Of a DNA stretch of 64,000 bases, positions 3,851 to 46,213 are shown piece by piece. Made by a program: the position numbers and the translations under genes. Every line of letters starts with the position of its first letter. The stretch's first letter is position 1. The notes beneath the pieces are model-generated. The model saw only the letters and a program-made list of their open reading frames with translations, ran no database searches and was not told the origin of the DNA. This DNA comes from Bugula neritina (taxonomy: Eukaryota; Animalia; Bryozoa): positions 9,603,408 through 9,667,407 of the forward strand of contig OZ037771.1 of assembly GCA_964035545.1 (NCBI GenBank), written 5' to 3'.

Positions 3851-3942
<92 letters not shown>

Positions 3943-19979: not shown

Positions 19980-22900
19980 TGTTATGATTTTCAGAATTAG
20001 GGTTGATATGCAATCCAGATAGTCTATCTACTTGCTAGAGAACTTCACCAGGATAAGTCGAGTGAAACGAGTATATATTTTACACACAAGAACACATTAC
20101 AAAAACTATACAAATACATTCAGTAATTCTACACATTTAGATCATTCAGCACTCTAACTTCGACTAACTAACAGCGGGAAAGCTAACTACTGCTACTAAC
20201 TATCAGTGTCGCATTGTTCCGGGTCAATTACGTGACCCCATGCTGTAGTAGCGGGGAAAAATAACATTTCCCCGTGTTACGTTGCTGGTAGCTCCACGAG
20301 CCACCACACTGCCCCCACCAGCAGAAAGCCCTCTTTCTGATATAAAAAAACTTTACAATTAACTACGTACATTAGTAGACCAAAAAGAAAAAACATAATA
20401 TATATATATATATATAGATACACAATAACAGACACAATCATTATACAGCATGTCACATACAATTGGCCAGCTATAGAGAAGGAATACCGGCTAGTTGTAG
20501 TATTGGACAAGAGGTCGAGCTGTCTAGCTGTCAAGCATTTGCATGATAGTCTTGGGTCCCCCAAGAGGGTAAGGCTTGCGGATCATTCCGGGCAGCAGAA
20601 CCAGAGTCAGTGTTTGGCAAGCCGATGTTTGGCCTGGCGGGCATGTAGTTTCCTTTTAATCCGGCCAACCGAGCCTTTTAACTGATAGTCCCGTCGTGGT
20701 ACTAAGCAGATCTGGTGCTAACTGGGTGAACTCAGCCTGCAGCCGGAGGAGACATTCCTCTACAGTGGCCAGGCGAGTGGGGTCTGGGGACGGTGTCCGT
20801 CTTCGACGAGGGAGGGGACTTGGAGACCGGGTCCGCCTTCTAGTCGGAAAAGGGGAGGCTTCTCCTTCTGGATAGGTAAACTCTTCGGGGGTATACACAA
20901 TCTGAGGGCGGTCAGACACCAACGGGGATTGTTGCCTGGTATAGTCTAGTACATGTTGAAAGCCCGAAGTCAGGACGGCCAACAACATTGCCTTCTTTAC
21001 TAAGGGTCGTATCAGGGTCAGGAATTCTGGGTAGAGTTTAGCATCTACCACATAATTCTCTCCAGAGAAACAGCCCGCCGCCCGGTCTCTAGTGACGGGA
21101 TAGGGGTAGACATCATTGTATCCGCAAGGACAGAATGTGAGTAATAGGTGGGCGTTGACATGCAGCTTCAGGGAGCGGTGAGAGGCACACTCTTTGTCAC
21201 AAATCTGGCACCGCGTCCTTCCTCTGGATCCCCAGGCTGTTTCTATCTGCTCCTCCGTTTCCGGCGACACCCACCGCCAGCGGCGGCGCAGTGGCTCAGG
21301 CCGGTCACCATTGGTGTACTTCTCATGATGCGGAGCGGGAAGTGCTCTATCCCGTACCCTGGTTGTAACGGGTCGAGTGTAACCTGAAAGAGTTTCAACA
21401 GCGTTAGTATAATACACTGCAGTGTTGTCGGCTTGAACAGCCTGGCAACTTCTCGTTCAGTTAACACTCGTAGAGATTTATGGTAGTGAATAGTTGGATA
21501 GAACACGTATTGCAATGAGATTGTAAAATCTCTAAGTCAAACTGAGTTCTTACCACGGTAGTTCACTAACCTATCTCCAGCTCATTGGACTCAGTGAGTC
21601 GGAGCTGAGTGATGCAATCTAGTTTCCATATCAAGATATAGTTAACTCACCCCACGATCCGTTGTCGTAAGACATACTGAATTTGTGAAATGGTTTGGAC
21701 TATTGACTAGGAACACGTCTACTCTTGACTGCATCAGCATACAAAAAGATCGAGCAATGTGGTTGGGGTGCGTGACTAAGACTTTGCGCACCCGGCGGAT
21801 GAATTTCGTTTCTACTTCCGCCGATACAAAAGTTGATATTTCCGTGGTGTTGACAACTCCCACAATTGCTCGATACTTTTCCCGTACGGTTTTCCCCTAG
21901 ACTTTCGTACGCGCCGCTTTTAATGCAGTAACATACAAAGTCCTTTAAGTATGCGGGGGGGTTGCCTCGTACGTTGTCCCCGCTCTAGGGGAGGTGACGC
22001 ATTCGTCGGTGTACTAGTAGGGACCTCTGGTGGCGTCTCTACTTCACCGTTAGTGGTCACTTCTTCCTGTTTTCCGGATGGAGCCCCTCCCTCCGTGGGG
22101 GTTTGCATTTCCGGAAGCGGCTCGGTTTCTGGAAGTGATGGAATCAAACTTGGCGCAGGCGGTGGCGGACGCGCTTCTGCAGGCAAAAGCGGTCGCTCCT
22201 CTCTCACCAAGTCTTCTTCCCGCCGAATGACCATTTCAAATTCAGGTCCATGCCGCCGTCGCCCGCGCGTTGTCGTCTGCCTCCTGGGCTCCAACAGCGG
22301 GGGGCTTCTCCCACTGCATCCGAGCTAGCCCAATACGGCTTCAAGCGAGCCTCATTCTGGATAGACACGTGTCCTGAGCGCTCGATCTTGTTGTATGGTT
22401 GGGCATAGCCTCGATGATCACGTAGAGTCCCACGAACTTAGGCTGTAACTTAGCCGCCTGTCCGCGACGCCTACGGTAATTGACCATCCACACCCTATCT
22501 CCCGTCTGGTAGAGAGGTGGTTCCTCGGAATCTTCCTGTCGCACCTTCCACTACTGTTCGCGCAGTATTTCATGTGCGACCTTCATTCGTTCCACTGGCA
22601 TACTTGTGAACCGAGTTGTCTTGCTCTGGAACGTGGTAGGTGAGATGGTCAGGGACACGAGTCTCTCTCCCAAGCATCAAGAGGTTTGGGGTCTCACCAG
22701 TACTGGTGTGTGGGGTGCTACGGTATGCGCGTATGACTTGCGGCAACACCGTGTCCCATTCCTCCTGACTGCGTCCGAAGAGAAAACTCCGGAGCGCATC
22801 ACCTAGCATCCGGTTATTGCGCTCCACCACCCTGTTACCCTGGGGATGGTAAGGGGTGGTCCTGCTCTGATTTACTCCCCAGAGGCGGCAAAAGTCGCTC

Positions 22901-26588: not shown

Positions 26589-26603
26589 TACGATCGTGCA
26601 GGA

Positions 26604-29600
26604 GTAGAGCTACGATCGTGACGACAAAGGGGGTAATATTATTTCCCTTCTAAATGCAGCACGGAGTCACCAAGTGTATTAAGAAGATGACCCGAGACAG
26701 CAATCTGCCAATAGGAATCATGAACTATAATTAGGAACTGTGACTTCCCGCGTAACAGTTATTTAGGAATAGACTGGCAAACTGTAAGCACTGTGCTGAG
26801 TAGTTGTTGATGTGTTCATAGATTTAGTTTTTGGATTGTGTATTAGCATATGAATATATTATTGTAACCTGAACCTTACTTGCGGAGTTGATTTAGCTTA
26901 CGTGTTATGAAGTAACTTGATTGCACACTAAAACCCACAATACTGAAAAAAGATAACGGTGGTGGCAGCGGTGGGATAGTTGTGTATATCAACGATGGAG
27001 ACTGACGATGCTGGAACACCACCACAGCCAATAGAAGGTGAGCGTGGAGATAATTTAGTTCCTGTGAATCGTGTAGTAGAAGATCGAAGAGCTCCGAGGG
27101 AGTTGAATGAGGATCGATACCGGTTAAAGGCACCCACTTTCACAGGTGAAGAAGTGGAACAATTCATACAGGAATTTAGTGACGTGTTGGACATCACTTA
27201 ATGGCCACCTAGGGTGGCCCTGCTGAAGCTTAGAATGTCATTGATGGATAAGGTCAAGCCCTATGGGTTAGGACAGGACATCGACAGTATCTTTGCTTCT
27301 CTGCAGGCCCGTTTTGGCATCTCCGCCATAAACGCCCGGGCCCGACTACAAAGGCTGCGGCGTGATCCACACACCCCGCTACAAAAACATGCCGCTACAG
27401 TGATGACGCTGGCGCAGATTGCATACAGTGATCTGCTTCAAGCTAACCGTGAACGGTGTACTTTTGACGCTTTGTACAATCTATCAACGACTTGGGACTC
27501 CATCACCAATTTCTGGCCAGGGGCGTTACCACAGTCGAAAGCGCCCTTGCAGAAGGGGAGGCCTATCTTCTGGCAAAACAGATGCATAAGAACAGCGGGG
27601 TTTCCCGCCAGGTGGAAGTAGAGTCAGCGGTCACCCCAGCCGATCTAGAGGCGGAACCCTCCGCGACCGCTGCTGGACAGTTAGTTGCTGTATCGAAGGT
27701 CGCACAACTGACCGACATGTTGGCTAAACTGGTGACGACACTGACACACAAAACCTCGGTAGGTACCGCTCGCGAGCCCCCACGGCCACTGGCGCCACCA
27801 CCACGGGAAGCAGTCAGTTTTTGCTGGGAATGTCGAAATCTACATTTCCGTAAATACTGCCCCCCTTCTTGCTCCGGGGTTAAACTACCGCGGCCCGCAG
27901 ATGTTCTCGCCTCCTGCAGGTCGGCAATGAATTTTCCAGGGAAGAAGAAACGTAGGTCACCCAGATGGGTACCGCGTGCCAACAACCAGGAGTGGCATAA
28001 GCCACAGCGGACAGGTAAGGGGCACCACCTCGCTGTTACCTTCTCCATGCCATTCCACATTAGAATTGACGGGCTGCCGACCCAAGAATCGGAGTGGAGA
28101 CCAGTACAGGCGTCAGAAAGCCCGCCTCTCCCCTTCGAGGTCACCTTACAACCGTCCCAAATGACTACCTCCCCGACCCACAGCGAGAAAGGTGCTCCCT
28201 GCAAGAGTACGGCCCGAAGAAAGAGTACGGGTGCAACACCATGGGCACAGCTATTTCTTACTCGGCAAGATAGCGGGTAAAGCTGTTACCTTCCTGCTCA
28301 ATTCGGGCTGCACCACGAACCTCATAAGGCGCCAACTCTTCGACACCCTTGGCGCTAGGGTCCGAAGCGAGATGGCACCATACGACGGGGAGAATGGCAC
28401 CCTGGCAGACGGGTTGTGCATTCTTTTCTATGGTATAATTGAGCTGACGGGACGCGTCCAAGATCAAGCTATCCAAGAGACGTTTATCGTCAGTCAGCTC
28501 AAAAAGAATACTATTTTCGGGATGCCGTTTCTGAAACGGCACGGATGTCACATGGACCTCACTAAGTCTGCAATAGTGATGTCCGGGCGAGAACTAGCCT
28601 GTGTCGATAAGTTCAGCCATCCTCTAGTTGGAAGCGTGCAGGTAGTACGGAACTGTAAAATACCGTGCCGCTCCCGGGCTACTATTTACTGCAGAGTGAA
28701 TAATAGCCAGACATCCATGAAAGGGTGGTGGAAGGTGCGCACGATAGAATCCAACTCGCCAGTAGCCTAAATCAGCTGACTGTGTGAGGAAAGATCTTAG
28801 TGCGGTGCGTCAACCCTTTTTTACGGAGCCGGTGAAGCTACCTGCAGGGTCCATGTTGAGCCGTTTCCACTCTGGCCAGAAAAAGGACGTGGGACCGTCG
28901 TTGGGGGACACGGTAGAAGGTCCCCAACAGCGCCTGCAAAAAGATTGGGGACCGTCCGGAAACGCATCCAGGGGTTGTATGAGATGGCCTGTGACGGCTG
29001 TGCGAGCAACGAGGAACGCCAGGCTATGACGAGGTTGCTACGCGAATATGGTGATGTGTTCAGCAGCGGAGACCATGACGTGGGGCTGAAATGAGCTGTC
29101 AGACACGAGATACCGCTGGCTGCAGGAACAGTTCCTATTCGGCAACCCACATGCAGGTTGGGGCCGGAGAAAGAGAAGGAGGTCAGCCGACAAGTCCGGG
29201 ATCTTCTGGACCGCGGCCTCATAGAGCCAGCCCATAGCGCATGGAGCTCAGCGGTGGTTTTGCTCTGGAAGAAAGACAGAAGTTGGCGGTTCTGTGTGGA
29301 TTACTGCAAGCTCAATAGCGTGACCATACAGGACGCCAACCGTCTACTTTGTATTGATGAATTCTTGGACGCCCTAGCCGGCAGCAAGTACGTCAGTAGG
29401 TAAGACTTGTTGGGCGGTTACTCGCAGGCCCCTCTGAGTCCCGACGTCCAGGAGAAGGCGACGTTGATCACACGGGACAGACTGTGGAAGTTGAAGGTGC
29501 TGCCGTTTGGGTTGACTTCTGCCCCGGCCACCTTCTAGAGGCTGATGGAGCAAGTCTTGAGTGGACTTCACTGGAAGACACTGCTGATCTACCTTGATGG

Positions 29601-31879
29601 CGTCAAGACACGTCAGTTGTCTGAGGGAGATATTCCAAAGACTCAAAGGTGCTGGTCTGAAGCTGAAACCTTCCAAGTGCGCTCTGTTGCAGCCGGAGGT
29701 TAGGTACCTAGGGCACTTTGTCGGTTAAAACGGCGTAGCAACGGATCCTCAGAAGGTACAGGCTATAGAAGACTGATCATTCTCCAGGATTTGACCGGAC
29801 TCCGGGCTTTCTTGGGTCTGGTAGGGTATTACAGGCAATACATACCAGACTTTGCGGGGATAGCACAGCCGTTAAATCAGCTCACCACAAAGGGGGTGGC
29901 ATGGCAGTGGACACCGCTCAAACAACAGGCATTCGATTGCCTCAAGGATTTCCTAATGACGGCACCCTTCTTGGCCCAGTCAGAAAATTCCGGCTGCTTA
30001 CGGATCATGCCTCCTTGATTTGGTTGTGTAAGAGAACAGAATCATCCAGTCAGGTCGCCCGGTGGCTTGAAGTCCTAGCCGACTTCTCTTACTGGATGGA
30101 ACATTGACCGGGTAAGAGGCACAGCAATGCGGATGGTTTGAGCTGGCGGCCTGATGGAGGTTGTAAACAGTGTCTCAACATCGAGAAGAAGGATGGAGGT
30201 CCCCCACGATCTGAGTTAGAGACACTAGCTCACCACGGAGCATAGTTTGACTGGGACCAAGGTCATCTCAAGCAGACAGTTGACAAATACTCGAAGGTTG
30301 TACAAAACCTCCACGCCAATCCTGTTTTGGCCAATAATGTCCGGGAGCTGAGGAAGCTTCAGGAAAACTTGCCCGGGGTGGTGGCAGACGCGTATCAGGC
30401 CAAAAAGAACGGGCGACGACCCAGCGATGAACAACTGAGACAGGAATGCGCCAAGTTCGGGCTGTTTTGCCAGCGTTGGGACTCCCTGAGGATCGGGCAG
30501 GATGGTCTGCTGACCATTACTCTAGCCGCCTCACCCATAGAGGAAGAAGCAAATGGCAGACTACCAGGACTACTGCGCCGCCGTTGGCGGTGGGTGTCAC
30601 CGGCAATAGAGAAGAAAATAGAGGCTGCGTAGGGGCCGAAGGGAAGTACCCAATGTCAAATCTGCTACGAAGACAGGCTGTCTCACCGCTCCCTAAGACT
30701 GCACGTAGATGCACACTTTCTATTGACCTTCTGCCCATGCGGACATCACGATGTCTACCCATACCCGATCATTAAACATAGAGCTGCTGGATGCTATCAC
30801 AGGGAGAACTATGTCATGAATGCCGACATGTATCCAGACTTCCTAACGCTCATCCGGTCACTAGTAAAGAAGGCAATGGTGCTAACCGTCTTGATCTCTG
30901 GATTTCAGCATGTACTAAGTATGCCCGGCAGCAGTTTTCCATAGTAGCAGACACTCCTAATGAACCAACCTCCGCGGAGATGGAAGAAGAGTTAAAATTC
31001 CCTCGCCGGAAGGCTATGACACCACCACCAGACCGCCCAACCCGTCTGGCCACCGTAGAGGAGTGACTCCTTCGGTTACAGGCCGACTTCACGCATCTAG
31101 CCCCAGATTTGTTAAACACAACGACTGGGCTGTACCAGCTTAAGGGCTTGGTGGGAAGAATAAAACGGAGACTGTGTGCCCGCCAGGCTAAGCATGACAA
31201 TGACAATGACAATAGTCTTCGTCCATGGGACATATCTGTGAATCTCGTCCTTTCTGGGGATTCCCGATGACAAACATTATGATCACGTAAATGCCTGTTA
31301 CTTCCTCTTCCTTGGATACCACTATAGTTAGCACTATTTCTCTTTCTATAGCTGATCAATTGTGGCTACCTTGTTCTTGGTGTAATGATTATGCTTTTGT
31401 CGTCATTTATGTATATATGTATATTATATTATGTAACTGCTTTTATAATATTCTGTATTTTGCGAGGGAGTGTATTTTTTATCAGAAAGTGGGCTTTCTG
31501 CTGGTGGAGGCGAAGTGGTGGCTCGTAGAGCTACGATCATGATGACGAAGGGAGAAATAATAATTCCCTTCTAAAAACAGCACGGAGTCACTAAGTGTAA
31601 TAAGAAGATGACCCGAGACAGCAATCTGCCAATAGGAATCATGAACTAAAATTAGGAACTGTGACTTCCCGCGTAACAGTTAGTTAGAAATAGACTGGCA
31701 AACTGTAAGCACCTTTTCTGAGTAGTTGTTGATGTGTTAATAGATGTAGTTTTTACATTGTGTATTATCGTATAAATATATTATTGTAACCTGAACCTTA
31801 CTTGTGGAGTTGATTTAGCTTCCGTGTTATGAAGTAACTTGATTGCACACTAAGACCCACAATATTGAAAAAGATAACA
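26604..31879 (+). mobile_element. Ty3/Gypsy element G2 (same lineage as G1): LTRs 26604-26958 (5'-clipped) and 31514-31879; decayed gag-pol with deletions in RNase H and of the whole integrase; ORF3 remnant ~30531-31270
   Basis: Matching LTR pair, tRNA-Leu PBS, LKAPTFTGE gag, RT motifs, CQICYEDRLSHRSLRLHVDAH. Confidence 0.93.
26960..26977 (+). promoter_or_regulatory. Primer-binding site, tRNA-Leu (also 33652-33669 and 50065-50084)
   Basis: TGGTGGCAGCGGTGGGAT is complementary to the 3' end of metazoan tRNA-Leu(AAG/TAG) ...AUCCCACCGCUGCCA-CCA; lies 1 nt after each 5' LTR. Confidence 0.9.
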
Positions 31880-32026
31880 ATACATTACAGTTGTTACAAA
31901 TGTAAAACTAGTAAGTTGGATGCAAATAAGCGTAGTAATATTACTCAGTTTATGCTATCTTAGAAATTTGTAGTAAATAGTTGGCATGCATGTGCATATA
32001 TATATAAATATAAATATATAAAAAAC

Positions 32027-32070
<44 letters not shown>

Positions 32071-32075
<5 letters not shown>

Positions 32076-32819
32076 GATAGTTAAGGGCAACCTTTTAGCT
32101 GCAACTGCCTTGCTGAGGTTTGCATTGTAATCATATAAGAATTCAGTACCAGTAAAATAAAATCTCACCTAATTGTGCTAGAGTCAAAATTTAAAAACTA
32201 TGTTGTAGATCTTCTTTTTCCCCAATGTAAGTTTTGTGGAAATTTCAATTTTCATTTTTTTTGCAAAGTTATAGACAGAAAACTGCCCAATTTTGGCCAA
32301 TTTTGCCTGAAAAGCTGACTTTTCAGTACCAGTAAAATATCTCAGCAGGAAAACATGATATCTGAATAAAATTTGCACTGCTGGAATCCTGAGATATTTC
32401 TCCAGTGCAATTTTTTTCTTTTTCCAATAACTCTTCTAGATTGCCCACAAATTGGTGATTTATACACTGAAAATGCTATATTTTTTCATAGAAAATTAGC
32501 AGCGCGCAGTACTTCACGCTTCAATGAGCACGTAGGGATGAGAAGATATTGGCGGTACATGCTAATTACAGGCTTACTAGCTGGTAGGCTATAATGAATA
32601 GCTTGCTTTGTACTTTGTTTATGTAGCACCCATAATGGAATGTTGATAGATTACGCAGCCCTAATGAAGGTTGCTGCTTATTGGTTGTAGTTTGATCCTA
32701 GGCTAAACAATTGCAAGTAGGCAACACGCATGCCACCCACAAAGCCATATTATTCAAGAACCTAAACTACATTCTGAGAGAAACTTATGACATTCTTAGT
32801 GAGGATGCCCTTAACTATC

Positions 32820-32824
<5 letters not shown>
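32071..32824. mobile_element. Non-autonomous TIR DNA transposon (CACAG ends, CMC/EnSpm-like) in a (TA)n tract
   Basis: TIRs CACAGGATAGTTAAGGGCA; flanked by TA; second copy inverted at 40417-41172. Confidence 0.9.
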
Positions 32825-32887
<63 letters not shown>

Positions 32888-32889
32888 AT

Positions 32890-33060
32890 GTATATATGGA
32901 TGTATACATAAACCAAACGACATTGTGGTTGGTTCTAAGAAAGCTTGGCTGCCCAGAACAGTTCACAAACCTGATTGCAGCTCTATATACAGGAATGAAA
33001 GCCTCTGTCAACCTAAAAGGAGATCTCTCAGCACTATTCGAGATCACAAACGGTGTAAAA
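32890..33060 (+). mobile_element. RTE-like LINE reverse transcriptase fragment
   Basis: LWLVLRKLGCPEQFTNLIAALYTGMKASV...FEITNGVKQ. Confidence 0.7.
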
Positions 33061-33299
33061 CAGTGGTTCCCTACCTGGGGAGGAATTTTCCCTTAGGGAA
33101 GAATTTGGACATTTTAGGGGAGGAATTTGGATTTTGAAAAATTCATGCAACTTTTTGACAGTTTTTGAGCTCTAGCAAGTTACATGTATATGCATATCTA
33201 TAAATCTTCATCTCAGTTCATCTATTTAACCAGCCCATATTCTACAATCTCGGTTTACTTCTATATGAATGTATTTATTAATTACTTTACCCTAACTAT
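33061..33299 (+). mobile_element. Left end of a probable hAT-type element, interrupted by Gypsy G3
   Basis: Begins CAGTGGTTCCCTACCTG (hAT/Charlie-like terminus) exactly where the RTE frame breaks; no right TIR found. Confidence 0.45.
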
Positions 33300-34581
33300 T
33301 GTAGTGAGTCATGCAATGTACTAATATAAGAATCGTCCTCTTTCCGTTCGGGGAAAACTAAGGCCCCAATGTATTAGTCAATAAGAAGAACCGGAATATG
33401 TACTTCCGACCCATGTGACAGTTCCCGGGCAATTAGCAATTATCAGGTTGTTGTAAGCGAGGGCTTGAAGTGTAAACACGCATTAGTAGTGACTGATGTT
33501 GTATTGTAATTTGATGTAATGTTTGTTTTGTATTGTATTGTGGATAATAAAGGTAATGACTCGACAGCTACCCTAGTAATTGCTAGTAGAATAGCCTACT
33601 AAATACGCAAGTAAAAAAACTCACGCACAGTAATTGCACAAATTACTACAGTGGTGGCAGCGGTGGGATCTTGCGTATAACAGTCAAGGCAGAAGACGGT
33701 ACGGAGCTACCCATTCCACTGAATGAAGGTGAGGAAGATAATGTTGATATAACTGTGGAACCAGTAGTGTTAGAAGAAGTGAGAGTTCCTAGAGAGTCCG
33801 GTGAGGACAGATACCAGCTGAAGGCGCCCACCTTCACAGGCGAGGAAGCCGTAGAGCAATTTATCCAGGAATTCCAAGATGTGATGGAAGTTGCACGGTG
33901 GCCACCAAGGGTGGCGTTGCTCAAACTCAGGATGGCGCTGACAGACAAGGCTAAGCCCTACGGAACGGGACCTGATATAGACGAGATCTTCGCTTCTCTG
34001 CGGGCCCGTTTTGGTATCTCTGCCATAGATGCGCGGGCCCGCCTACAAAGGCTGCAGCATGATCCTCACACGCCGCTGCAGGAGCACGCTACCACGGTGA
34101 TGACGCTGGCGCAAATCGCGTTTCGCGATCTGCCTCAAGCGAACCGTGAGAGGTATACTTATGATGCCTTCGTGCAGTCCATCAACGACTTGGGGCTCCA
34201 CCATCAATTCCAAGCGCGGGGAGTCGCCACGGTCGAGGATGCACTCGCGGTAGGAGAAGCCTACCTCTTGGCGACTCATATGCACTGCAACCGCGTGGCC
34301 TTACACCAGGTGGCCACGGAGCACACTACTGCTCATACTGAACCAAATGCAGAACCCTCCGCGTTGGCTAATGTGACCCAGATGACGGTAGCATCGAAAG
34401 TCGCTCAGATGACTGACATGCTAGCCAAACTGGTCGCCACGTTAGCTCCCCCAAGCCAGGTAGATACTGCCCGTGAGCCTCGCGGGCTGCAGGCACAATC
34501 ACCAGGCACGAGGCATAACTTCTGCTGGGGATGCGGAAGGCTTGGAAATTTCCAGAAGAACTGCCCTCAACTCCAACAAGG

Positions 34582-34625
34582 GTTAAACTACCACGGCCCG
34601 CAGATGTTCCCACCTCCTGCGGGCC
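34582..34625 (+). promoter_or_regulatory. Predicted -1 ribosomal frameshift signal at the gag/pol junction
   Basis: G_TTA_AAC in gag phase, 6-nt spacer, 9-bp stem GGCCCGCAG/CTGCGGGCC with 13-nt loop; pol frame is -1; repeated in G1, G2, G4. Confidence 0.8.
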
Positions 34626-37024
34626 ACCGGTAAATCATCCAGAGAGGACAACGCGTCTGCCACCCCCCTGGGCGCCACGCGAGGATACTGTGGAGTGGCG
34701 ACCACTACGGCAAGTAGGCTGTTCAAGCCACTCGCCACCTGGGTTCTCTATGCCACTCCGAAACAGATCCGACGGGCTGTTGACCTCAGAGCCTGCGAGG
34801 GAAACGGTACAGGCGCCGCAAGGCGTACCACCCCAACCTCGGCAGCTGGTCATTAGTCGTCGCCAACCATGGACCCTCGACCCACAGCGAGGGAGGTGCA
34901 ACCACGGCACACACAAATGCAGCCACACGGGAGTAGCTACTTCCTGCCAGGAAAGCTAGCTGGCAAGCCTGCCAACTTCCTTCTGGACTCGGGCTGCACC
35001 ACCAACCTCTTTAGCCGTCAATTCTTTGACACCCTCAGCGCTAAGGTCAGGGACGGGCTGGCACTGTATGAGGGGGATCATGGCACCCTGGCAGACGGGT
35101 CGTGCATTCCCTTCTACGGCATTTTTGAGCTTACTGGGTGCGTTCGTAACCAGACCATCTAGGAGACGTTTATCGTCGGACAGCTCAACGAGGATGCTAT
35201 CCTCGGGATGCCATTCTTACAAGGACACAGATGTCGCATCAATTTCAGCAAATCTGCAATGATCATGGGCGACAGGGAGCTTGCCTGTGTCAATAAGTTT
35301 GGTCGTCTTCTAGTGGGAGGAGTGCAGGTCGTACGGAGCTGTACGATACCAGGCCACTCCCGGGCTACCGTCCGCTGCAAAGTAGACGGTGGCCAGACCT
35401 CTAGGTTGGAAGTTGTCAAAAGTTTGCACTCAAGAATCAAACTTGCCCACAGCTTTAGCCGGCTTACAGGACACGGAGAGATCTTGGTGCAGTGCGTCAA
35501 CCCCTCCTCAGAGACGGTGGACCTGCCATCCAGGTCCATGCTGGGCCGCTTCCATCCTGTCTAGGAGGAAGACATTGGGCCGTTGTTGAGAGCTACGACG
35601 GAAGGTCCTCAACAGAGCCCGTCTCAAGGGCGGAGGACCGTCCCAACCCACGCCTCCCATTCTCCAGGGACGCGTGGCTACGCGGGCAACAGAAGGCGCC
35701 ATGCCATGGCCAGGTTGTCACGCCGGTACAGTAAGGCACCCCGCCACACAGACCATGACGCCCGCCTAAATAGAGCGGCCTATCGTGAGGTACCACGGGC
35801 GGCGGAGACCACCCCTACTCGGCAGCCCACGACGAGGTTGGGCCCGAAGAAGAAGAACAAAGTTCCCCCGCGGTCCCCGCTGGCAAAACGGGACTCGGGC
35901 CAACTCCAACAGAGGGCTGACACGCCCCCGAAGGCCGTCCAGAGCCTCCGCGCCAAACCTGTATGGGCTGGTAACGTTGGGGAGCTACCGAAACTCTAGG
36001 AAAACCTTCCTGGAGTGGTAGCCGACGAGTACCGAGTGAAACAGGAAGGGCAACGACCCAGTGGTAGACAACGGAGACAGGGATGCGCCGAGTTACGGCT
36101 GTACTGTCAACGTTGGAACTCTTTGCGGATCGGGCCGGATGGTCTGCTGACCATGACTTTGGCCGCCAACAGCAGACAACCAGCAAGGGAGAGGATAATT
36201 TGCCCAGCTGCCATTTGCCGGAAGTTGATACAGGACACCCACCAGCAGACTGACGCAGGAGTCCAGGGGGTGGTCACCAAGCTACAACTCCGGTGGTACT
36301 GGCCCAACATAGAGCGGGACATCCAGCGCAGAGTGAAACAGTGCGAAATCTGCCAGACCAACAAGCATAGCCGTCTCCCCGGTGAAGCGGGACTGCAGGC
36401 GCATTGTGCTAGAGGGTCTTGGCAAGCGGAGACTGACGTCCTGGCCGGAAACACGCCCATGACCCCGCAGGAAGACTTGGCGAGGCAGGAAAGACCACTT
36501 CCGTCCTTGGAAGGGCGCCCACCGCCCCCAACGTCAGGCCTGCTACCACCACCACTTCCGGAACCAGAAACGGGTCCGGAAGTGCAAAAACCCCCTGTGG
36601 GAAAGGCTCCGTACGGAGGTACCAACGTAGGAACAACCGTCACAAACAGGCTGGAAACACCACCCATGAGACATAACAATCTACGGGTGAGCACACCGCC
36701 TCCTACAGTGATGACACCTTCAGGACCACACACTAGGCAACCCCCAGCGTACCTCGGAGACTTCATACATGACCGCGCTAGAAGCGGCAGTTATGAAAGT
36801 CTGGCGAGGTTTCGTATGGGAAAACAGGCAAAGAAACGTGGGAGTTGTGAACACCACGGAAATATCAACTTTTGCCTTGGCGGAACCACGAATGAGATTC
36901 ATCCGCTGGAAGTAAAAAGCCCTTGTCACGCTTCACAACCACGCTGCCCGGTCTTTTCCTACGTTGATGCAGTCAAGAGTAGACGTGCCACTAAACACTA
37001 ATCATTTACCGCTCTCATTCCAAA

Positions 37025-38010
37025 ATGTCTTACTATTCTGGATCGAAGGGTGAGTTAGTTATGTTTTTAGTACAGGAACTAGACTGCATCAGTCAGCTCT
37101 AGCTATGCCAGTTAGCGAGCTGGAGATTCGATAATGAAACACAGTGGTGGGAACACACGTCGACTTAGATTTTAAATAATCTGCCATAGCGAGTGTGTTC
37201 TCGATCAACTATTCTTTAGCCTGAATCTCACGAGTGTAACTGAACAGAGCACCTGTCAGGCTGTACATGCCGGCGATACTTTAGTGTATAGTCTTTAACA
37301 CTGCTACTCTTTCAGATAACACTCGAGTGACCACCTCCCGGTCACGGGACCAGCCAACCCCTCTACCCATGGAGGAAGAACTAGTGATGGAAAGGAGGAT
37401 TGAAAAAGCCTGGGGACCCAGCGGACCCCACCAGACCTGTCAGGTCTGCCTTGAGGAGTACCCGTCACACCGCTCCCTGCATCTGCATGTAGACGCACAC
37501 TTTCTACTGCACTTTTGTCCATGCAGGTTCCATGATGTGTACCCGTACCCCGTGATAATCCACAAGATGAACTGCTTTGCCGAAGAGGGCCATATCGTAG
37601 ACAAGGACAGTTTCCCCCAGTATCTAGACATCATCAAGCCGGTCATCAAGAAGGCTATAACCCTGGCTGCGCTAGCGTCAGGGTTCTAAGTACTACTGCT
37701 GTCTGCCCGCCATAAGTCTCCTATGGTTAAGGTCCCGTCCACTACCCCCGTCAACCCTAGTAACACTCCCGAACCAGAAGAAGTGACGATACCCTCTACC
37801 CAAGAAACTACAACAACCCTGCCAGGACCCAGCCGATTTGCTACTGTAGAAGAGCGGCTTTTAAAACTACAAGCCGAGTTTACACAACTTGCTCTTGACC
37901 TGCTGGATACAACAACATGTCTATACCAGCTGAAGGACTCAGTGGGGCAACTGAAGCAGAGGCTACGTGCCTGACAAGCTCAGCACAGATCGCGCTCACT
38001 ACAAGAGTGA
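37025..38010 (+). pseudogene. G3 accessory ORF3, two coding exons (37025-37049, 37316-38010); two premature stops
   Basis: ATG TCT TAC TAT TCT GGA TCG AAG G|GTGAGT ... CTCTTTCAG|AT AAC in phase; CQVCLEEYPSHRSLHLHVDAH; RFATVEERLLKLQAEFTQLA; stops at 37687 and 37972 where other copies have Q and R. Confidence 0.8.
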
Positions 38011-38764
38011 GAGCTCACCTAATAAGCATGCCTGTGAAAGGCACCTTTCGGCGGACTGCATTATCGTCGCGTAGATGACCAGCTCCCCCGACCATTGGCC
38101 CGCGTGCTGTATAGCACCCTCTCTCTCTCTCTGTAGCTGACCAACTGTGTGTTTGACCACTCTGTTTACCTTCTTGTATATATATGCTTGTGTGTACTAA
38201 AATATTTCTCTTCTTTCTTTTTGTGGGTTTAATTATGTATCTTTTAGATTATTGTACTGTTTTTATATGTATTTTTTTGTGTGTTCTCAGAAAGTAGGGC
38301 TTTCTGCTGGGGGGGGGCGGTGTAGTGGGTCACGAAATGTTTGAGGAATACTAAGGTCTTAATGTATTAGCCAATAAGAAGAACCGGAATATGTACTTCC
38401 GACTTATGTGACAGTTCCCGGGCAATTGACAATGATCACGTTGTTGTAAGCGAGGGCTTGAAGTAGAAACATGTGTTAGTAGTGACTGATATTATAGTGT
38501 AATTTGATGTAATGTTTGTTTTGTATTGTATTGTGAATAATAAAGGTAATTACTCGACAGCTACCCTAGTAATTGCAAGTAGAATAGCCAACTAAATACG
38601 CAAGTAGAAAACTCACGCACAGTAATTGCACAAATTACTACACTATGACGCAGTTTCGTAGCTTTTTAATTAGCTAAGTTGGTGTAAAAATGCTAAAGCA
38701 GTTTAGTGATGTCAAGTGTAAAAATTTTATCTATCCTCAATGCTAAATGCAAATGAAAAAATCT

Positions 38765-39790
38765 TGTGACACCCATTTTAGTCATTCTGGACTAAAATTG
38801 GTGTCGCGAATATTTTTAGTTTTATTTTCACATTTTGCAGAAATTTTTGTTTGTTAATATTGCTCAAAACGTTTTTAATAGTTTAAAGTATATTATGTTT
38901 CATAAGTTAGCATGTCTATGATCATAACGATAACAGTAAAATTAAGTGAAAATTAAATTTTTGATGAGGAAAAATAACTCTTTATAAGTTTGTTTTTTGT
39001 TAAAATTAATTTAATATAATCATTATTTATTTATGTTTTTGGTTTAAACAATTGTGAAATGTTCATTATTTACTGAAGAGTCATTTAACAATAATCTAAA
39101 CAGTCACAACTGTCTAAAAATCTGAAAATAAAATGAAAATTGTTCGCGACACCTATTTTAGTCAAAACCCCCCCCTTATGACTAAATTGGGTGTCACGGA
39201 CCGCGACACCCGGTGGCCACCCATTTTAGTCACACCCGTTACAGTATGTTTCAATATGCTACAGTGTTTTTCAGTATATTTCAGTATGTTTCCGTATATT
39301 TTGGTATGTTGCAGTTTATTTTGGTACGTTGCAGTTTATTTCAGTATGTTGCAGTATAATTCAGTATGTTTCAGTATATTTCAGTGTGTTACAGTCTATT
39401 TCAATATACTACAGTATATTTCAGGATGTTACAGTATATTTCGCTATGTTGTAGCATATTTTGGTATGTTACAGTATATTTCAGTATGTCGCCGTATATA
39501 CTTCAATATGTTGCAGTATATTCCAGTGTGTTACAGTATATTACAGCATGTCACAGTATATTTCAGTATGTTACAGTATATTTCAGTATGTTACGGTATA
39601 TTTCAGTGTATAAAAGTATATTACAGTGTGTTACAGTATATTTGAGTATCTTACAGTATGTTTCGATATGCTACAGTATTTTTCAGTATATTTCATTATG
39701 TTACCGTATATTTCAGTATGTTATACAGTATATTTCAGTATTTTACAGTATATTTCAGTATGTTACGGTATATTTTGGTATGTTACAGTG
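38765..39790. repeat. Unclassified repeat: GACACCCATTTTAGTCA motifs in both orientations, then a ~20-bp minisatellite (TGTTACAGTATATTTCAGTA)n at ~39237-39790
   Basis: Directly visible; the ORFs 39133-39917 are repeat artefacts. Confidence 0.8.
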
Positions 39791-40240
39791 TACCGGCTGC
39801 CTCAGTTTATTTATAACAGGTGGCACTGCTGGAATTATCCTGATGTTTATTGAAACTACTGGTAACCAACGTGAAACTACAATAATAAAATTTAATAATA
39901 GAGATATTGATGAATAAAAAATTAAACATAAAACATTACAAAAATTGTTGCATAACATTAACAATGGTCAACATACCTCTATTACCCTTCCTAGGGGGAG
40001 TTAGAATTAAATATATAAATTTGTGATAGTGAAAGTTCAATCAAAAATCAAAAATGACTAGTGAGAATTTCAACAGTCAGTGGAGAAAAGCATCAGACTT
40101 TGGAATGGAAGCATAAAACACCTCAGCTATTATAATTCCTGGCTACAAGCTATACAAAGCTGACAGCTATTATGTTAGCAAAAATCATTGCATTGTATAA
40201 TAGTGAAAACAAAGCTATTTGTGGTCTAAAAAAAGCTGTG

Positions 40241-40288: not shown

Positions 40289-40416
40289 TATGGGTGAATG
40301 GTGATGAATTGTCCTGTGCCACTGTATGCAATTGTGTGTAATAAAAAATGATCAAAACGCTGCACTCCAACCTAAAATTTAGGATGAAATTTTACTTGGT
40401 GCTTTTACTAAAACTA

Positions 40417-41172
40417 CACAGGATAGTTAAGGACATCCTCACTAAGAATATCATAAAATTCTCTCAAAATGTAGTTTAGGTTCTTGAATAATATTGCTCT
40501 GCGGGTGGCATGCGTGTTGCCTACTTGCATTTGTTTAGCCTAAGATTAAACTACAGCCAATGGGCAGCAACTTTCATTAGGGCTGCGTTATCTATCAACA
40601 TTCCATTATGGGTGCTACATAAACAAAGTACAAAGCAAGCTATTCATTATAGCCTGCCAGCAAGCAAGCTTGTAATTAGCATGTACGAGCCAATATCTTC
40701 TCATCTATACGTGCTCATTGAAGCGTGAAGTGATGCGCGCTGCTAATTACCCATGAAAAAATATGGCATTTTCAGTGTATAAATCACCAATTTATGGGCA
40801 ATCTAGAAGAGTTATTAGAAAAAGAAAAAAATTGCACTGGAGAAATATCTCATGATTCTAACAGTGCAATTTTTATTCAGATATCATGTTTTCCTGCTGA
40901 GATATTTTACTGGTACTGAAAAGTCAACTTTTCACGCAAAATTGGCCAAAATTGGGCAGTTTTCTGTCTATAACTTTGCAAAAAAAATGAAAATTGAAAT
41001 TTCCAAAAAATTTACACTGGAGAAAAAAAAGATCTACAACAGAGTTTTTAAATTTTGACTCTAGCACAATTAGGTGAGATTTTATTTTACTGGCACTGAA
41101 TTCTTATATGATTACAATGCAAAACCTCAGCTAGGCAGTTGCAGCTAAAAGGTTGCCCTTAACTATCCTGTG
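40417..41172. mobile_element. Second (inverted) copy of the CACAG-ended element, inserted in the last codons of BEL pol
   Basis: TIRs plus TA duplication; removal restores RPLSNLV-VLVKAPSKISS*. Confidence 0.92.
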
Positions 41173-44100
41173 TACTAAATTGCTCAATGGCCTGACGAGC
41201 TGACGGGCCTTCACTTGGGGTATCCACGTACACCTAATAGCAGCGTCACGGATCTCACTACCCCATCATGCGATCGATGTACCTCGATGACACGGGCCAT
41301 CGACCAGTCATTTCAGAGACTGGCTTCTTGCATAACATGAACGACATCACCTACAGCTACCTCAGGGGTTTTTTTAGTCCATCTTTGTCGCACCTGAAGT
41401 GTCTGCAGATACTCGCTACGCCACTTACGCCTGAATTGATTAGATAGCTCTTGAACAACTCGCCAGCCCTTGCAGGAGTAAAGATCTGAGCCAGAGAACT
41501 CAGCAGGAGGGGCAGGGTGAGTTGGGATTTCATGGTAAAGAGCATATTTGGGGTGAGTGGGAGATCATCTTCAGAGACGGTCCCCAGAGGTCTACTGTTA
41601 ATAATTGACATAACCTCATAAAAAAGAGTTCTTAACTGAGAGGTGCTCAACCTTGCACAGTGTGTCCTTCCAATTCCTTTGAGGACTGTTCTGACAGATC
41701 GAATCAGAGGCTACCACACACCACCCATGTGACTAGAGTGAGGTGGATTAAAGATGAACTTGATGTTGGGGTGTGAAGATTTGAGGTGACCTTCCAAGTT
41801 TTTGGCGAGGTCATTTAATGCTCCGATAAAGTTTGTGCCTTGGTCGCAGCGTATTGTAGACACTGCACCACAAAGAGATATTAGGTAGCGAAGTGCATTA
41901 ATGAAAGAATCAGAAAACATATCTTTAAGAAGCTCAATATGAACAGCTCTGGGGGCAAGGCAACTTATCATGAGTCTGTAAGCCTTTCTTTCTTTTTGAT
42001 CATCCTTAACTATAAATGGACCAAAACAGTCAATCCCACAATGAGTGAATGGGGCTGCTTCATCAAGCCTTTCTGCAGGAAGAGTTGCCATATGAGGAGT
42101 TGCAGGTGTACCGTGAATCTTTTTTGCATTCAACACAGTTTTGAATGACTTTGAAAACCTTAGACTTGGCATTGACTATCCAGAAACCATGAGATCTAAT
42201 TTGAGCTAGCGTAGGTTCTCGACTTTAGTGAGCAGAAAGATGAGCGGTCACATGTGCAGATATGGGTAAGATGATAGGGTGCTTCTCATCATATGAAAGG
42301 GTAGTGCATTCCTGTAGTCTCCCACCAATATGAAGTAGGCCTCTTGAGTCTAGGAATGGGTCTAGCTTTGTCAGACAGCTAGATTTCTTCAGAGGCTGCG
42401 ATGCCTTAAGCACGGCGATCTCATTTGAGAAATACTCTACTTGAATGAGTTGTAGGATAGTCTGTTTGGCGTTTCGAAATTTAGACTGGGGAGTTTTGCT
42501 TAGGTACTTTTGAATTGTGGCAATTGCTCTCACTGCTCTGTTCCAGTCAGAAAACTTTCCCAAGCGTTTGTCGAGAGAAAATTGTACTGTTTGTGAAGAT
42601 AACGACAGTGATGACTGTTTTACCTCTTCATCATCAGGATTGATGTACACTTGTGGTTGCGCATGTAAGATGATAGGTTCAGTCTTGAGAAATTGAGGAC
42701 CGCTAAGCCAGTCAGATGAGCTGATTTCTTTGACATTGGCGCCTCTACAACTGAGGTCAGCTGGGTTTTCTGTAGTTGGAATGTATTTCCAGCTGTTCGA
42801 ATCTGAAAGATGCCGTATTGTTTCTACTCTGTTTGCAACATATGTGTGAAATCGATTACCAGTATTACTTATATAGCCAAGAACAACAGTTGAGTCAGAA
42901 TATAAGTGTGTGTTGATGTTTGGAATGTCAAGTTCTTTGACATACTTTGTGACCAATCTGACAGCACTTGTTGCTGCCTGAAGCTCGGGCCTTGGAACGG
43001 TCACTTGTTTCATTGGCGCAACCTTGGCCTTACGTGAAAGAAGTGCAACATGCACTCGCTTTGCCGACTCAACTAGTCGAAGATATGTGCAATGACCATA
43101 GCCCACTGTACTCGCATCAGCAAATGTGTGCAGTTGAGCAGTTTTAATCGAATTGAAACCATGAGGAGTGAGACAGCGAGGTATGGTGATGTGATTGATA
43201 GACATCAAGTCTGATTTACAAGTAGATCATCTGAGAAGTAAGGAGCCTGTAAGTGGTGCATTCCAATCAGGGTTATTACGGCATGTCTCTTTCAGAATGA
43301 TTTTACCCTGGAGAACAAAGGGAGCTATCAGACCTAGGGGGTCAAACACGGAAGCTACTGTAGATAAAACACCTTTCCTAGTGTCTGGTTTGATAATGGG
43401 GCGATGCTGGAATGTGAATTGGTCTTGGTCCGTATCCTACAGGACACCAAGTGATCGTTCTTGAGGTAATAGATCAGAGGTGAGATTTAGGGTGGCAAGT
43501 GTATTTGCACACTCACTCCTTGGTAACTGTGACATGACAGACCTACTGTTAGAGGCTATTTTGTGAAGCTTAAATTGACCGGTTTGGCAAACTGACTGAG
43601 TTTGTTTAATCAGGATAATAGCTTCTGCTTCACTGGAAACACTTGTGAGAACATCATCAACGTAAAAGTTGTGATGAATGAAGTGATGTGATGGTGCAAG
43701 AGTCGGTGATAATGACTTGCAGCGATCAGCTAGAAACCTGAGACCGTAGGTTGCACATGCGAGAGAAGATTGAGCTCCAAAAAAATGAACAGTCATCTTG
43801 TAAGTAGCATATCTTCCATCTTTATTGTACCATATAAAGTTAGGATAGTCTTGGTGCTCTGGTAAAACCTTGAATTGATGGAACATTCGTTCTATGTCCC
43901 CCATAAAGGCTATATGATTCTTCCTAAATTGCAGTAGGATACCTTAGAGGTCATTTATGTGATCTGGACCATGCAGAAGGAAGTTATTCAGACTAACTCC
44001 TCCTACCATAGCAGTGCAATCAAAGACAACACGAATGCAATCAGGCTTGTGAGGATGAAACACTCCAAAGGGAGGAATATACCAGGAAGTGGTTGAATCA

Positions 44101-46213
44101 TGAGGAGCAATAACAGCTTCACCCTTAGAAATGAGGTCAGTCATGAAATGGTGGTATTGAGTTTTGTACGCAGGATTACTGTTGAACTTCTTCTCTAGAA
44201 GTCTGAATCGATGTAGTGCAGAGGACTTGGGGTCAATATGTGGAGGTTTAGCTTTAAATGGCAACGGCATCCAGACCCTGTTATTTTTCATTGTGGTCTG
44301 ACTTTTCATTGTGAAGAGAAATTGCTTGTCTTCAATAAGGAGACTTGGTGTTTCATCGTGTGAGTCTGAATATTCAGGGTTGAATATGTCAATTAGCTTA
44401 GCAAGCTCTTTTTTTGGATTAGCAGTACACTTGAAAGTTACTAGCTCTCTGCCCTGTGGCACTGGTCGATTGATTATTTTAGTATGTGTAATATGCTGAG
44501 GATTTATTTTACCCATGACTTTCCAACCTATCACTGTCTTGATTGCAAACGGTTCTTCTTTGTTACTTGTGATAAGGATTTGTTGAGGTCTGTATGCCTC
44601 CATGAAAGTGTTGCTAATCAATAATATTACTGGGATATTGTTAGTGGAATCCGGTAGTTCATCTGCCACTGGCAACAAGTGGGGCCATGTCTGTAGCTTT
44701 TGCTTTGTAGGAATTTGAGTGTTGTCAATAGATAGTGTTGGGTGTGAATAACATGGTGGTGGTGAATGTCGCTCTGTACCTCTGTAGGCACGAACCTATA
44801 AGCCTGTAACAATATCACAGTCAATTGGTTTGTTGTTAGAAGTCAATGTGGTAAGACCAATTTATATTTTCATAGTGTCAGGATTCAGTTTTGCTATAGT
44901 GTTGTAGGTTATGTAAGTGGTGTCAGACATGGAGTCCACTAGGGCAAAAACTAAACATTCTTTTGATGGGTTTTCCTCACTGCTGACCCAAACTGGTATT
45001 ACCCATGATAAGCTATCAGGGGCAATATTGATGCAATTAAAATTTCCAGTGAAGGTTTGTTTATCATCATCTAGTCATTTATCTGATGCATTTTGTTGAG
45101 AGCTTTGTGCTTCTGGGTTTTCCTGTGAATCTGGTTTTGTAGTGAGTTGCTTGTTTGAACCATTGGATGTTGCTACGTTTTTAGGGTATTTATGCATTTT
45201 GTGAAGAGAAGTTGGATTCCTTTCTTTGCAGGTGTTACAGACAGCAGGAGATTCACATTCCTTGGCAATGTGGTTACCATCTAAACAGGCATAGCAAAAG
45301 TGTTTGCCTTTGATGAACTCATGAGCTTCAGAAAATGGCAGAAGTTTTAGCTTTCTAAAAACAGCAGTTTTGTGATTGTCCATTTTGCAGAATATAGATG
45401 CATGAATGTGTGCCTTAAATTGCTGTGGAGTAACTTCGAACTGCTGTGCAGCAAATGTCCTCTTTGGAATTACAGGTTTTTTTATAATGTCTTGAGTTTT
45501 TGTCTTTGCTTATGTGTTTGATTCATGGAGAGCTTTTGACAATAAATTTTGAGCTATATCACAGTGGTGTGATAAAATGTTATAAATGTTTTTAGAGGAG
45601 CAAATCTCCCAGTCTCTTTTTCTAATCTGGTAGACTCGTCAGCCCACATTTATCCGATTTGATGTGGAATTTTCACTATTAACCTTTTATTGGCTGCTTT
45701 CGTATTGAGGTTGATGTCTGCATCAAGACCATCAATATATTCCAGTAAATCAATAAAATCTTCTAAAGCTTTTGCATCTCTTTGGTTTATTTTTGGCCAG
45801 TTTTGGAGTTTATCTAAGTATGCCTCTGTTATTTTTTCTCCTTTCCCGTATCTGTCATCTAATTTAGCCCAGGCTGCCTCATATGAGTGTTCTGTCTTTT
45901 GTCTGTAAAGACCTTGGATGACTTTGTAAGCTCTGCCGTCTACAAACTGTCTTAAATTTAACCATTTTTGCTCGGCTGAGCTTTTTGAGAGGTTAAAAGC
46001 CTCATTGAAGGCCACCTTCCAATCTTGGTATTTCAGTGGATCGCCCGAAAACATGGGGGGCTCTGATGGACATTGCCTAACTAGGTTGATAGCTTCAGCG
46101 TAATCATCAGGTGTAAAGGCAGGTTGCTGTTGGTAGCTGGGGTTAGTAACAGGGCTTTGATAAGCAACCTGGGGAACATTGCTTGAGAGCTCATTAGACT
46201 GTAAAAAAGGGTT

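Follow-up and report, generated by a model that had tools for sequence, protein, structure and literature searches.

In a 64,000-nucleotide stretch of the genome of the bryozoan Bugula neritina (contig OZ037771.1; hereafter called the window), an accessory open reading frame (ORF), ORF3, lies 3′ of the integrase in two diverged copies of a Ty3/gypsy retrotransposon, named G1 and G3 in this study. It was found that ORF3 is split by a short intron in both copies. The G3 intron is a real, excised intron, and purifying selection is the best reading of its conservation. The chances are even, in my judgement, that these 266 or 267 nucleotides hold a folded cis-acting RNA element, consisting of a central hairpin domain of about 105 nucleotides and a 29-nucleotide hairpin as predicted by folding programs, which would act only in the genomic RNA that retains the intron. 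An element of this kind had been proposed in a preliminary description of the same DNA, and the fate of that proposal is told below with the results.

The ORF3 gene and its splice sites

The host elements of the ORF3 intron are Ty3/gypsy (Metaviridae) long terminal repeat (LTR) retrotransposons. Their layout is LTR, primer-binding site, gag, protease-reverse transcriptase-RNase H-integrase, ORF3, and LTR. The stop codon of the G3 pol frame is at 36999-37001, upstream of the ORF3 start codon at 37025. The parts of the ORF3 gene and the nearby splice sites are as follows (a caret marks a splice junction).

37025..37049, plus strand: G3 ORF3 exon 1, an ATG and 22 nucleotides, ending at donor D2 (AAGG^GTGAGT) in phase 1; 18 of the 25 positions are identical to G1
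37050..37315, plus strand: G3 intron, 266 nucleotides, GT..AG
37316..37974, plus strand: G3 ORF3 exon 2, in phase, with one in-frame TAA at 37687-37689 (tblastn)
21651..21675, minus strand: G1 ORF3 exon 1, ATG at 21675-21673, donor TGGG^GTGAGT
21384..21650, minus strand: G1 intron, 267 nucleotides, GT..AG, with TACTAAC about 25 nucleotides before the AG
20656..21383, minus strand: G1 ORF3 exon 2, 241 open codons (P0001), the last 10 or so out of the frame of the relatives
33725..33734, plus strand: G3 gag donor D1, GAAG^GTGAGG, exon end 33728, phase 1, after gag codon 14
27034..27043, plus strand: gag donor D1 of a further copy, G4, GAAG^GTGAGC, exon end 27037, 14 codons from the ATG at 26995, with position and phase as in G3
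36966..36987, plus strand: block with candidate acceptor A1, 22 nucleotides invariant between G1 and G3, a pyrimidine tract followed by GATGCAG^TC, AG at 36971-36972
36838..36874, plus strand: block near the integrase C-terminus, 37 nucleotides, one base different from G1, sliding-window identity 0.90-0.97

Both introns begin with GTGAGTTA (preceded by G) and end with ACTCTTTCAG, and candidate branch points lie 20-25 nucleotides before the AG (TACTAAC in G1 and CTTTAAC in G3). Introns of the U2 type carry consensus motifs at the splice-site flanks, the branch point, and the pyrimidine tract. Removal of the intron joins the 25-nucleotide exon 1, which ends in phase 1, in frame to the conserved exon 2 in both G1 and G3. 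The acceptor A1, inferred only from its sequence motif, would define a 77-nucleotide mini-exon. The block at 36838-36874 far exceeds the identity of its surroundings, which is about 70%.

Evidence that the intron is spliced

Logan contigs from four sequencing runs (X1 to X4), which may be of RNA or DNA, were mapped to positions 20000-38700. One X1 contig joins 37048 to 37315 (cut +1) and omits 266 nucleotides with GT..AG ends, at a depth of 843. The joint coincides exactly with the predicted G3 intron at 37050-37315. The mapping does not show whether extra letters lie between the two sides of the joint; since the break falls exactly at the two most conserved ends of the intron, the joint is unlike a copy with a diverged middle. 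Excised forms result from splicing, whether the runs are RNA or DNA.

A database protein, P0025 (261 residues), starts with MAEEGTELPIPRNE and continues with ORF3 exon 2, so that gag codons 1-14 are fused in frame to it. Residues 2-14 of this protein agree with the N-terminus of G3 gag at 11 of 13 positions (BLASTP), and the agreement stops exactly at GAAG^GTGAGG, between 33728 and 33729. Thus, the acceptor at 37315/37316, here called A2, also pairs with the donor at gag codon 15 in the same phase. As read from these sequences, D1-A2 joining yields an env-like subgenomic mRNA, and the 266 nucleotides evidently have two roles: with D2-A2 joining they form an intron by themselves, and with D1-A2 joining they are the 3′ end of a large gag-pol intron. 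In addition to this gag fusion, the 63 ORF3 relatives found in the protein collection include 16 sequences, and one uncertain sequence, that run from the intron into exon 2, which indicates that the intron is widespread in the family. The other 45 begin within exon 2 and are uninformative on splicing. Thus, the splice signals and their phase, the excised X1 contig, and P0025 identify G3 37050-37315 as a real U2-type GT..AG intron.

Conservation of the intron sequence

The analysis of conservation and covariation rests on two intron copies, G1 and G3. A search for further copies by means of the ORF3 alignment gave 184 pattern matches in metagenome contigs and 150 in viral contigs, none of which was confirmed, and one weak and probably spurious match in genome contigs (L001, 34% identity over 59 residues). 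Two metagenome contigs (L002 and L003) picked up with an 18-nucleotide pattern from an invariant block proved to be unrelated once their sequences were examined.

The two introns align end to end, as the preliminary description had stated. In a MAFFT alignment, 174 of the 270 columns, or 174 of the 263 aligned positions (66%), are identical. A Needleman-Wunsch alignment gave 194 identities at 259 aligned positions (75%), or 0.708 per column, against 0.479 ± 0.015 (maximum 0.522) for 100 shuffles. In protein-guided codon alignments of G1 and G3, by comparison, the four-fold degenerate sites are identical at 66 of 133 positions in pol (50%) and at 19 of 60 in ORF3 exon 2 (32%), and all pol third positions at 244 of 469. 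The intron is more conserved than these silent sites, with Fisher p values between 6e-10 and 0.0016, the latter for the MAFFT alignment compared with the four-fold sites of pol. Per-column identity is 0.49-0.54 in ORF3 exon 2 and 0.565 between the ORF3 stop codon and the LTR; within 30-60 nucleotides 3′ of the acceptor it drops to 0.27-0.47.

The identities are clustered. Runs of at least seven identical columns number 11 against 4.3 expected (reached in 1 of 5000 permutations), and nine against 3.4 (0 of 5000) when only interior columns are counted. The terminal blocks, one at each end, coincide with the 5′ and 3′ splice sites. Two helices, CAGCTC/GAGCTG and GGAGAT/ATCTC, have both of their arms in conserved blocks. 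The intron was rejected as a coding sequence, as each of the six frames holds 4-10 stop codons in both copies; the mismatches have no clear three-base periodicity (24/38/27). In run contigs of other subfamilies, the diverged middles have equal or nearly equal lengths (117 and 117, 129 and 133 nucleotides). The clustered identities, the closed frames, and the held length argue against uniform neutral decay, and purifying selection on the intron is the best reading of these data.

Predicted RNA structure

The hairpins recognised in the two introns are listed here.

37094..37122, plus strand: G3 hairpin A, outer stem CAGCUC/GAGCUG, inner stem GCUA/UAGC
21578..21607, minus strand: G1 hairpin A, outer stem CAGCUC/GAGCUG, inner stem GACUC/GAGUC
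37122..37232, plus strand: G3 central hairpin domain, closing helix 37123-37130 with 37222-37229, apical hairpin 37166-37183; z -4.27, 0 of 200 shuffles as low
21468..21578, minus strand: G1 central hairpin domain, closing helix 21578-21573 with 21477-21472, apical hairpin 21532-21517; z -3.08, 1 of 200 shuffles as low

The whole introns fold below dinucleotide shuffles (z -2.35 for G3 and -2.55 for G1). The strongest structural signal is the 111-nucleotide central domain, which is absent from the preliminary description. Its plan is common to both copies: a closing GAGAU/AUCUC helix, a GUGGU..GAAC/GUUC stem, and an apical AGAUU/AAUCU hairpin. A U[C/U]G/C[G/A]A helix in this domain has one clean compensatory change between G1 and G3. 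In five of five comparisons between the strands, the better fold is that of the sense strand (-4.12 against -1.98 for the antisense strand in the G3 central domain; about -2.8 for the sense strand of the G1 domain). Of six flanking controls that had the same size, five gave z scores from -1.6 to +0.9. The intron structure is thus plausible and strand-specific, as far as folding models can tell.

Hairpin A was found exactly where it had been described, and the inner stems, which differ in sequence, are predicted to pair in both copies. When the inner 17-18 nucleotides were shuffled, an equally stable hairpin was obtained in 552 of 2000 cases for G3 (28%) and 167 of 2000 for G1 (8%); the invariant outer stem is uninformative for covariation. 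Of the GGC/GCC and ACAC/GUGU stems previously proposed near the 3′ end, those of G1 are present, but they do not exceed chance (z -0.53, 61 of 200 shuffles), and G3 folds differently there. RNAalifold on the G1/G3 pair gave 55 base pairs, and in nine of them both partners differ between the copies, compared with 4.6 ± 2.2 in shuffles; the consensus energy has z -2.66 (attained by 4 of 300 shuffles). The covariation is suggestive at best.

A covariance model, R1, was built from the G1 and G3 core (144 positions, 34 pairs) and run over the whole window with filters off. The matches were the two source copies and the G1 antisense strand (19 bits). An Rfam search of positions 20000-58000 with E values up to 1 gave six matches, all outside the introns and far under the gathering scores. 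Long-range pairing between leader and intron (duplexfold) was not above chance by a method ill-suited to such lengths: 155 of 200 and 59 of 200 shuffles attained equally low energies.

G2, another Ty3/gypsy copy in the window, has no gag donor. It was found that G2 carries ATG^GTAAGT...TTGCAG at an analogous place after pol (55726-55965, plus strand). This 240-nucleotide stretch folds with z -5.7 to -5.9, with no shuffle as low, and contains a hairpin of about 100 nucleotides capped by UGAUU/AAUCA. The R1 scan found nothing in it. The stretch may be a structured element of an analogous kind that lacks the intron context.

The ORF3 protein

The 63 relatives of ORF3 in the protein collection (52, six cluster members, and five more) are all unnamed, and none falls in a Pfam family. 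The protein is about 240 residues long. In an alignment of 34 sequences, RRRWRWVS is followed by a CQIC-x12-H-x3-H finger, helices, and a basic tail; the finger is kept in most sequences with a few substitutions. C2H2 models of Pfam match residues 57-78 below the cut-off (E 0.03-0.35, about 14 bits against 21-27), and among these matches is the double-stranded RNA-binding zf-C2H2_jaz (E 0.034). The top matches of a PDB profile search are zinc fingers (E 0.6-0.9), and an Atlas look-up gave C2H2 fingers at 0.85 or less. AlphaFold2 gave a poor model (mean pLDDT 54, pTM 0.31). The sequence of ORF3 suggests three features: an arginine-rich stretch, a finger resembling the C2H2 type, and a helical region at the C-terminus.

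Explanations for the conserved intron

How could a folded element explain the persistence of the intron? The ORF3 mRNA would be made by splicing D1 or D2 to A2 and hence would lack the element, and the full-length LTR-to-LTR RNA, which is reverse-transcribed, would retain it. A copy made from the D2-A2-spliced RNA would keep gag-pol but lose the intron permanently. Since the intron has survived across families whose silent sites are saturated, the intron-bearing RNA would appear to be favoured as the template for replication. The simplest cause would be a signal in the intron for nuclear export, packaging, or dimerisation of the unspliced RNA, and its reader would be ORF3 or a host factor.

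Several observations weigh against this explanation. An excised copy exists (the X1 contig), so that spliced RNA must sometimes be copied; this excised form is a single contig with a shorter side of 28 letters. For G1, no intron-less joint across 21384-21650 was found in X1-X4, and the bridging contigs (from X2-X4) retain the intron. Several G3 helices are broken or shifted in register in G1, and the flanking control at the integrase end of G1 also has z -2.8. The nine compensatory pairs were attained by 16 of 300 class-preserving column shuffles, which is marginal with two sequences, and the structure conservation index of 0.42 was attained by 28 of 300. Among 27 variants listed of 35 in G1-like contigs, 14 are in unpaired positions (38% expected, p 0.10), eight keep the pairing, and five break it. 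There was no Rfam match in either intron, a search which the preliminary description had suggested. The 290-nucleotide integrase tail directly upstream is identical at 59 of 93 third positions (63%) and is not clearly less conserved than the intron (p 0.70 with MAFFT, 0.04 with Needleman-Wunsch). The tail has two near-invariant blocks of its own and is thus no clean neutral yardstick, but two sequences leave room for a younger common origin of the whole block of integrase tail and intron.

On balance, the proposal of a cis-acting element in the unspliced RNA gains from the conservation, the clustering of identities, the complementary blocks, the sense-strand folding, and the excised contig. 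Of the two refuting signs named in the preliminary description, equal divergence is absent, as intron divergence is well below synonymous divergence. The other is a lack of significant covariation, and covariation is indeed not significant with two copies; in view of the frequencies of equally stable shuffled stems in hairpin A and of the compensatory pairs in column shuffles, to call the hairpins covarying was an overstatement.

It is possible, though rather unlikely, that the intron serves splicing control only. The blocks would then correspond to the splice sites, the branch point, the pyrimidine tract, and enhancers or silencers within the intron, and local structure would set the use of A2 and the mini-exon and thereby balance genomic RNA against ORF3 mRNA. 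The splice sites at the terminal blocks, the conserved pyrimidine tract and AG 5′ of the mini-exon, and the weak covariation are in line with this, and two donors facing one acceptor call for a regulated choice of splice sites. However, the nine interior blocks of at least 7 nucleotides are far from the splice sites, the best fold is formed by the middle 111 nucleotides, and an intron-less copy could presumably still make ORF3 mRNA via the candidate A1, which would leave the persistence of the intron unexplained. A special case of the folded-element explanation names the reader of the signal: ORF3, translated from spliced mRNA devoid of the intron, would bind the intronic hairpin domain and escort genomic RNA that still has the intron from the nucleus or into particles, like Rev of HIV-1 and its response element (RRE), an analogy drawn in the preliminary description. 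The element is missing from both spliced forms, ORF3 has a finger, RRRWRW, helices, and a basic tail (with the zf-C2H2_jaz match below threshold), and in Ty3/gypsy elements there is a precedent in CERV of Cer1, which is made from a spliced mRNA and needed for genomic RNA export (PMC10309623). Against it, the AlphaFold2 model is poor, and searches of Rfam, Pfam, and PDB profiles gave no resemblance to Rev, CERV, or any RRE. This pairing is doubtful. Equally doubtful is the fuller analogy, in which an independently built circuit of the Rev/RRE type would have a C2H2 protein, made only from spliced mRNA, recognise the hairpin domain of its own intron and select the genomic RNA for export and packaging, thereby preserving the intron.

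The remaining explanations do without an RNA element. The blocks might be internal promoter or enhancer sites, for ORF3 or an antisense transcript, located in a first intron as in many host genes. The conserved block at 36966-36987 is just 5′ of the ORF3 start codon, the intron is directly behind a possible internal start, and conserved blocks without covariation are expected of protein-binding DNA. This is improbable, as the sense strand folds more strongly in all five comparisons, the conserved blocks pair with one another, and, as P0025 shows, splicing makes expression of ORF3 from the LTR promoter possible. Least probable, and only barely credible, is the absence of any function, in which the integrase tail and the intron would have passed as one block between the G1 and G3 lineages, through recombination later than the rest, and the lower divergence of this block would be neutral. 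Template switching is common between co-packaged retroelement RNAs, and the third positions of the tail are near the intron in identity (63% and 66% with MAFFT). However, the identities are strongly clustered, and the steep drop of identity 3′ of the acceptor means that a recombination boundary would have to match the splice site. In addition, the length is held at 266 and 267 nucleotides, and in other subfamilies too, and both copies fold above chance.

Other features of the window

The window is AT-rich (GC 29-42%), with GC-rich islands of 52-59% that are Ty3/gypsy LTR retrotransposons. In the ORFs of G1 and G2, the order of Pfam domains is Asp_protease_2, RVT_1, RT_RNaseH(_2), Integrase_H2C2, and rve. 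A repeat search found LTR pairs that are 90-97% identical.

About 20298-26590, minus strand: G1, 5′ end truncated by G4
26604-26950 and 31525-31872, plus strand: LTRs of G4
30540..31195, plus strand: remnants of ORF3 exon 2 in G4 (tblastn)
33346-33618 and 38339-38611, plus strand: LTRs of G3, 90% identical
49645-49944 and 56781-57080, plus strand: LTRs of G2, 97% identical

G1 and G4 meet head to head at 26590-26604. The 5′ LTR of G4 cuts the 5′ end of G1, which suggests a nested or adjacent insertion. G4 lacks the integrase C-terminus, the mini-exon, and the intron, due to a deletion of about 2.1 kb relative to G1. No ORF3 homologue was found in G2 by tblastn. A nearly identical primer-binding site, TGGTGGCAGC[G/A]GTGGGAT, adjoins the 5′ LTR in G3 (33650-33668), G4 (26960-26978), and G2 (50065-50083); it probably resembles the 3′ terminus of a leucine tRNA. 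At 3-491 and 796-893 (plus strand) lies the C-terminal portion of a fifth ORF3, with a tblastn match to P0001 residues 99-129 (E 0.003) and a weaker one to residues 204-234. It is followed by a match to a polypurine tract and LTR start, and is the 3′ end of another element truncated by the edge of the window.

The window also contains a BEL/Pao-type element at 41711-44795 (minus strand), whose peptidase at 42225-43226 matches Peptidase_A17 (E 6e-25). This peptidase points to an animal host, as BEL/Pao elements are known only from metazoans. Inverted repeats of about 700 nucleotides, 93-95% complementary (32119-32826 and 40415-41123), lie on either side of G3 and its surroundings and might represent the two arms of an element, of the foldback type or another. 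In the AT-rich part, direct repeats that are 98% identical (9592-9731 and 14192-14331) and inverted repeats that are 97% complementary (9886-10223 and 13356-13693), about 3-4.6 kb apart, suggest a further young mobile element. A tandem satellite of about 128 bp occupies the last 6 kb (58064-64000). There are a 10-bp periodic array (39194-39792) and 8-bp microsatellite-like arrays (3765-3970, 31939-32108, and 32769-32944), and weak mir-297-like Rfam matches lie inside one of these short-period arrays.

Comparison with known systems

Rev is an adaptor protein that binds its response element, multimerises, and carries an export signal. In the HIV-1 Rev/RRE system and in those of Rex, Rem, and Rec, a structured RNA lies in sequence that is spliced out of the mRNA of a small accessory protein, and the unspliced RNA must be exported and packaged. 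The logic is alike here. The ORF3 element, however, would be about 110-270 nucleotides long within a short 3′ intron, and ORF3, a putative adaptor, is C2H2-like. No homology to a Rev-like protein or to a response element was found in Rfam, Pfam, or PDB profile searches.

According to the available extracts of the papers cited here, the Ty3/gypsy element Cer1 of C. elegans makes CERV from a spliced mRNA that shares the gag start; CERV has a cysteine-rich putative zinc finger and is needed for unspliced genomic RNA to be exported (PMC10309623). It consists of 517 residues encoded by five exons that overlap gag, and the same extracts define no RNA target for it (PMC10309623). In contrast, ORF3 has about 240 residues and is encoded downstream of pol, and similarity between the two was not detected. 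Folded elements for the export of intron-containing retroelement RNA, which depend on host factors, are located between pol and the 3′ LTR: the constitutive transport element of Mason-Pfizer monkey virus (MPMV CTE), MTE of MusD, and RTE of IAP (PMC12786077, PMC10309623). The ORF3 intron likewise lies between pol and the 3′ LTR and has a predicted fold. In those extracts, however, these elements are not described as sitting in a dedicated small intron, and no homology to the ORF3 intron was found.

The retroviral packaging signal psi is also worth comparing. It lies in the 5′ leader and is bound by Gag. Like psi, the ORF3 intron is downstream of the donors (D1 and D2), and both splices take it out of the RNA, yet it is near the 3′ end. 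Spliced subgenomic mRNAs are known from other LTR retroelements, such as those of gypsy env and the gag RNAs of copia/EVADE and BARE (PMC12786077, PMC3735527, PMC5580714), and functional introns are known from Ogre and EVADE (PMC12786077). The ORF3 mRNA resembles them in joining an early gag donor to a downstream acceptor, with the intron kept in the genomic copies. It is unlike them in its second, short nested intron, which has its own ATG mini-exon before a non-env ORF3, is conserved like a coding sequence, and is predicted to be structured. The small ORFs of the Drosophila MDG1 group encode a transmembrane fusogen-like protein and are another kind of accessory gene (PMC11952523). Within a limited literature collection, no description of a conserved structured intron in a Ty3/gypsy ORF3 was found.

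Significance

An intron in a retroelement is self-erasing, since progeny copied from spliced RNA lose it permanently. An intron that survives while synonymous sites are saturated, keeps its length to one base, and folds above chance therefore points to a mechanism that distinguishes unspliced from spliced RNA. Retroviruses meet the same need by means of psi, the CTE, or Rev/RRE. Outside the retroviruses, the only precedent in the papers cited here is the CERV protein of Cer1 (PMC10309623). The ORF3 system would offer a compact pair for study: an RNA of 110-270 nucleotides and an accessory protein of about 240 residues that has 63 public relatives and no Pfam family.

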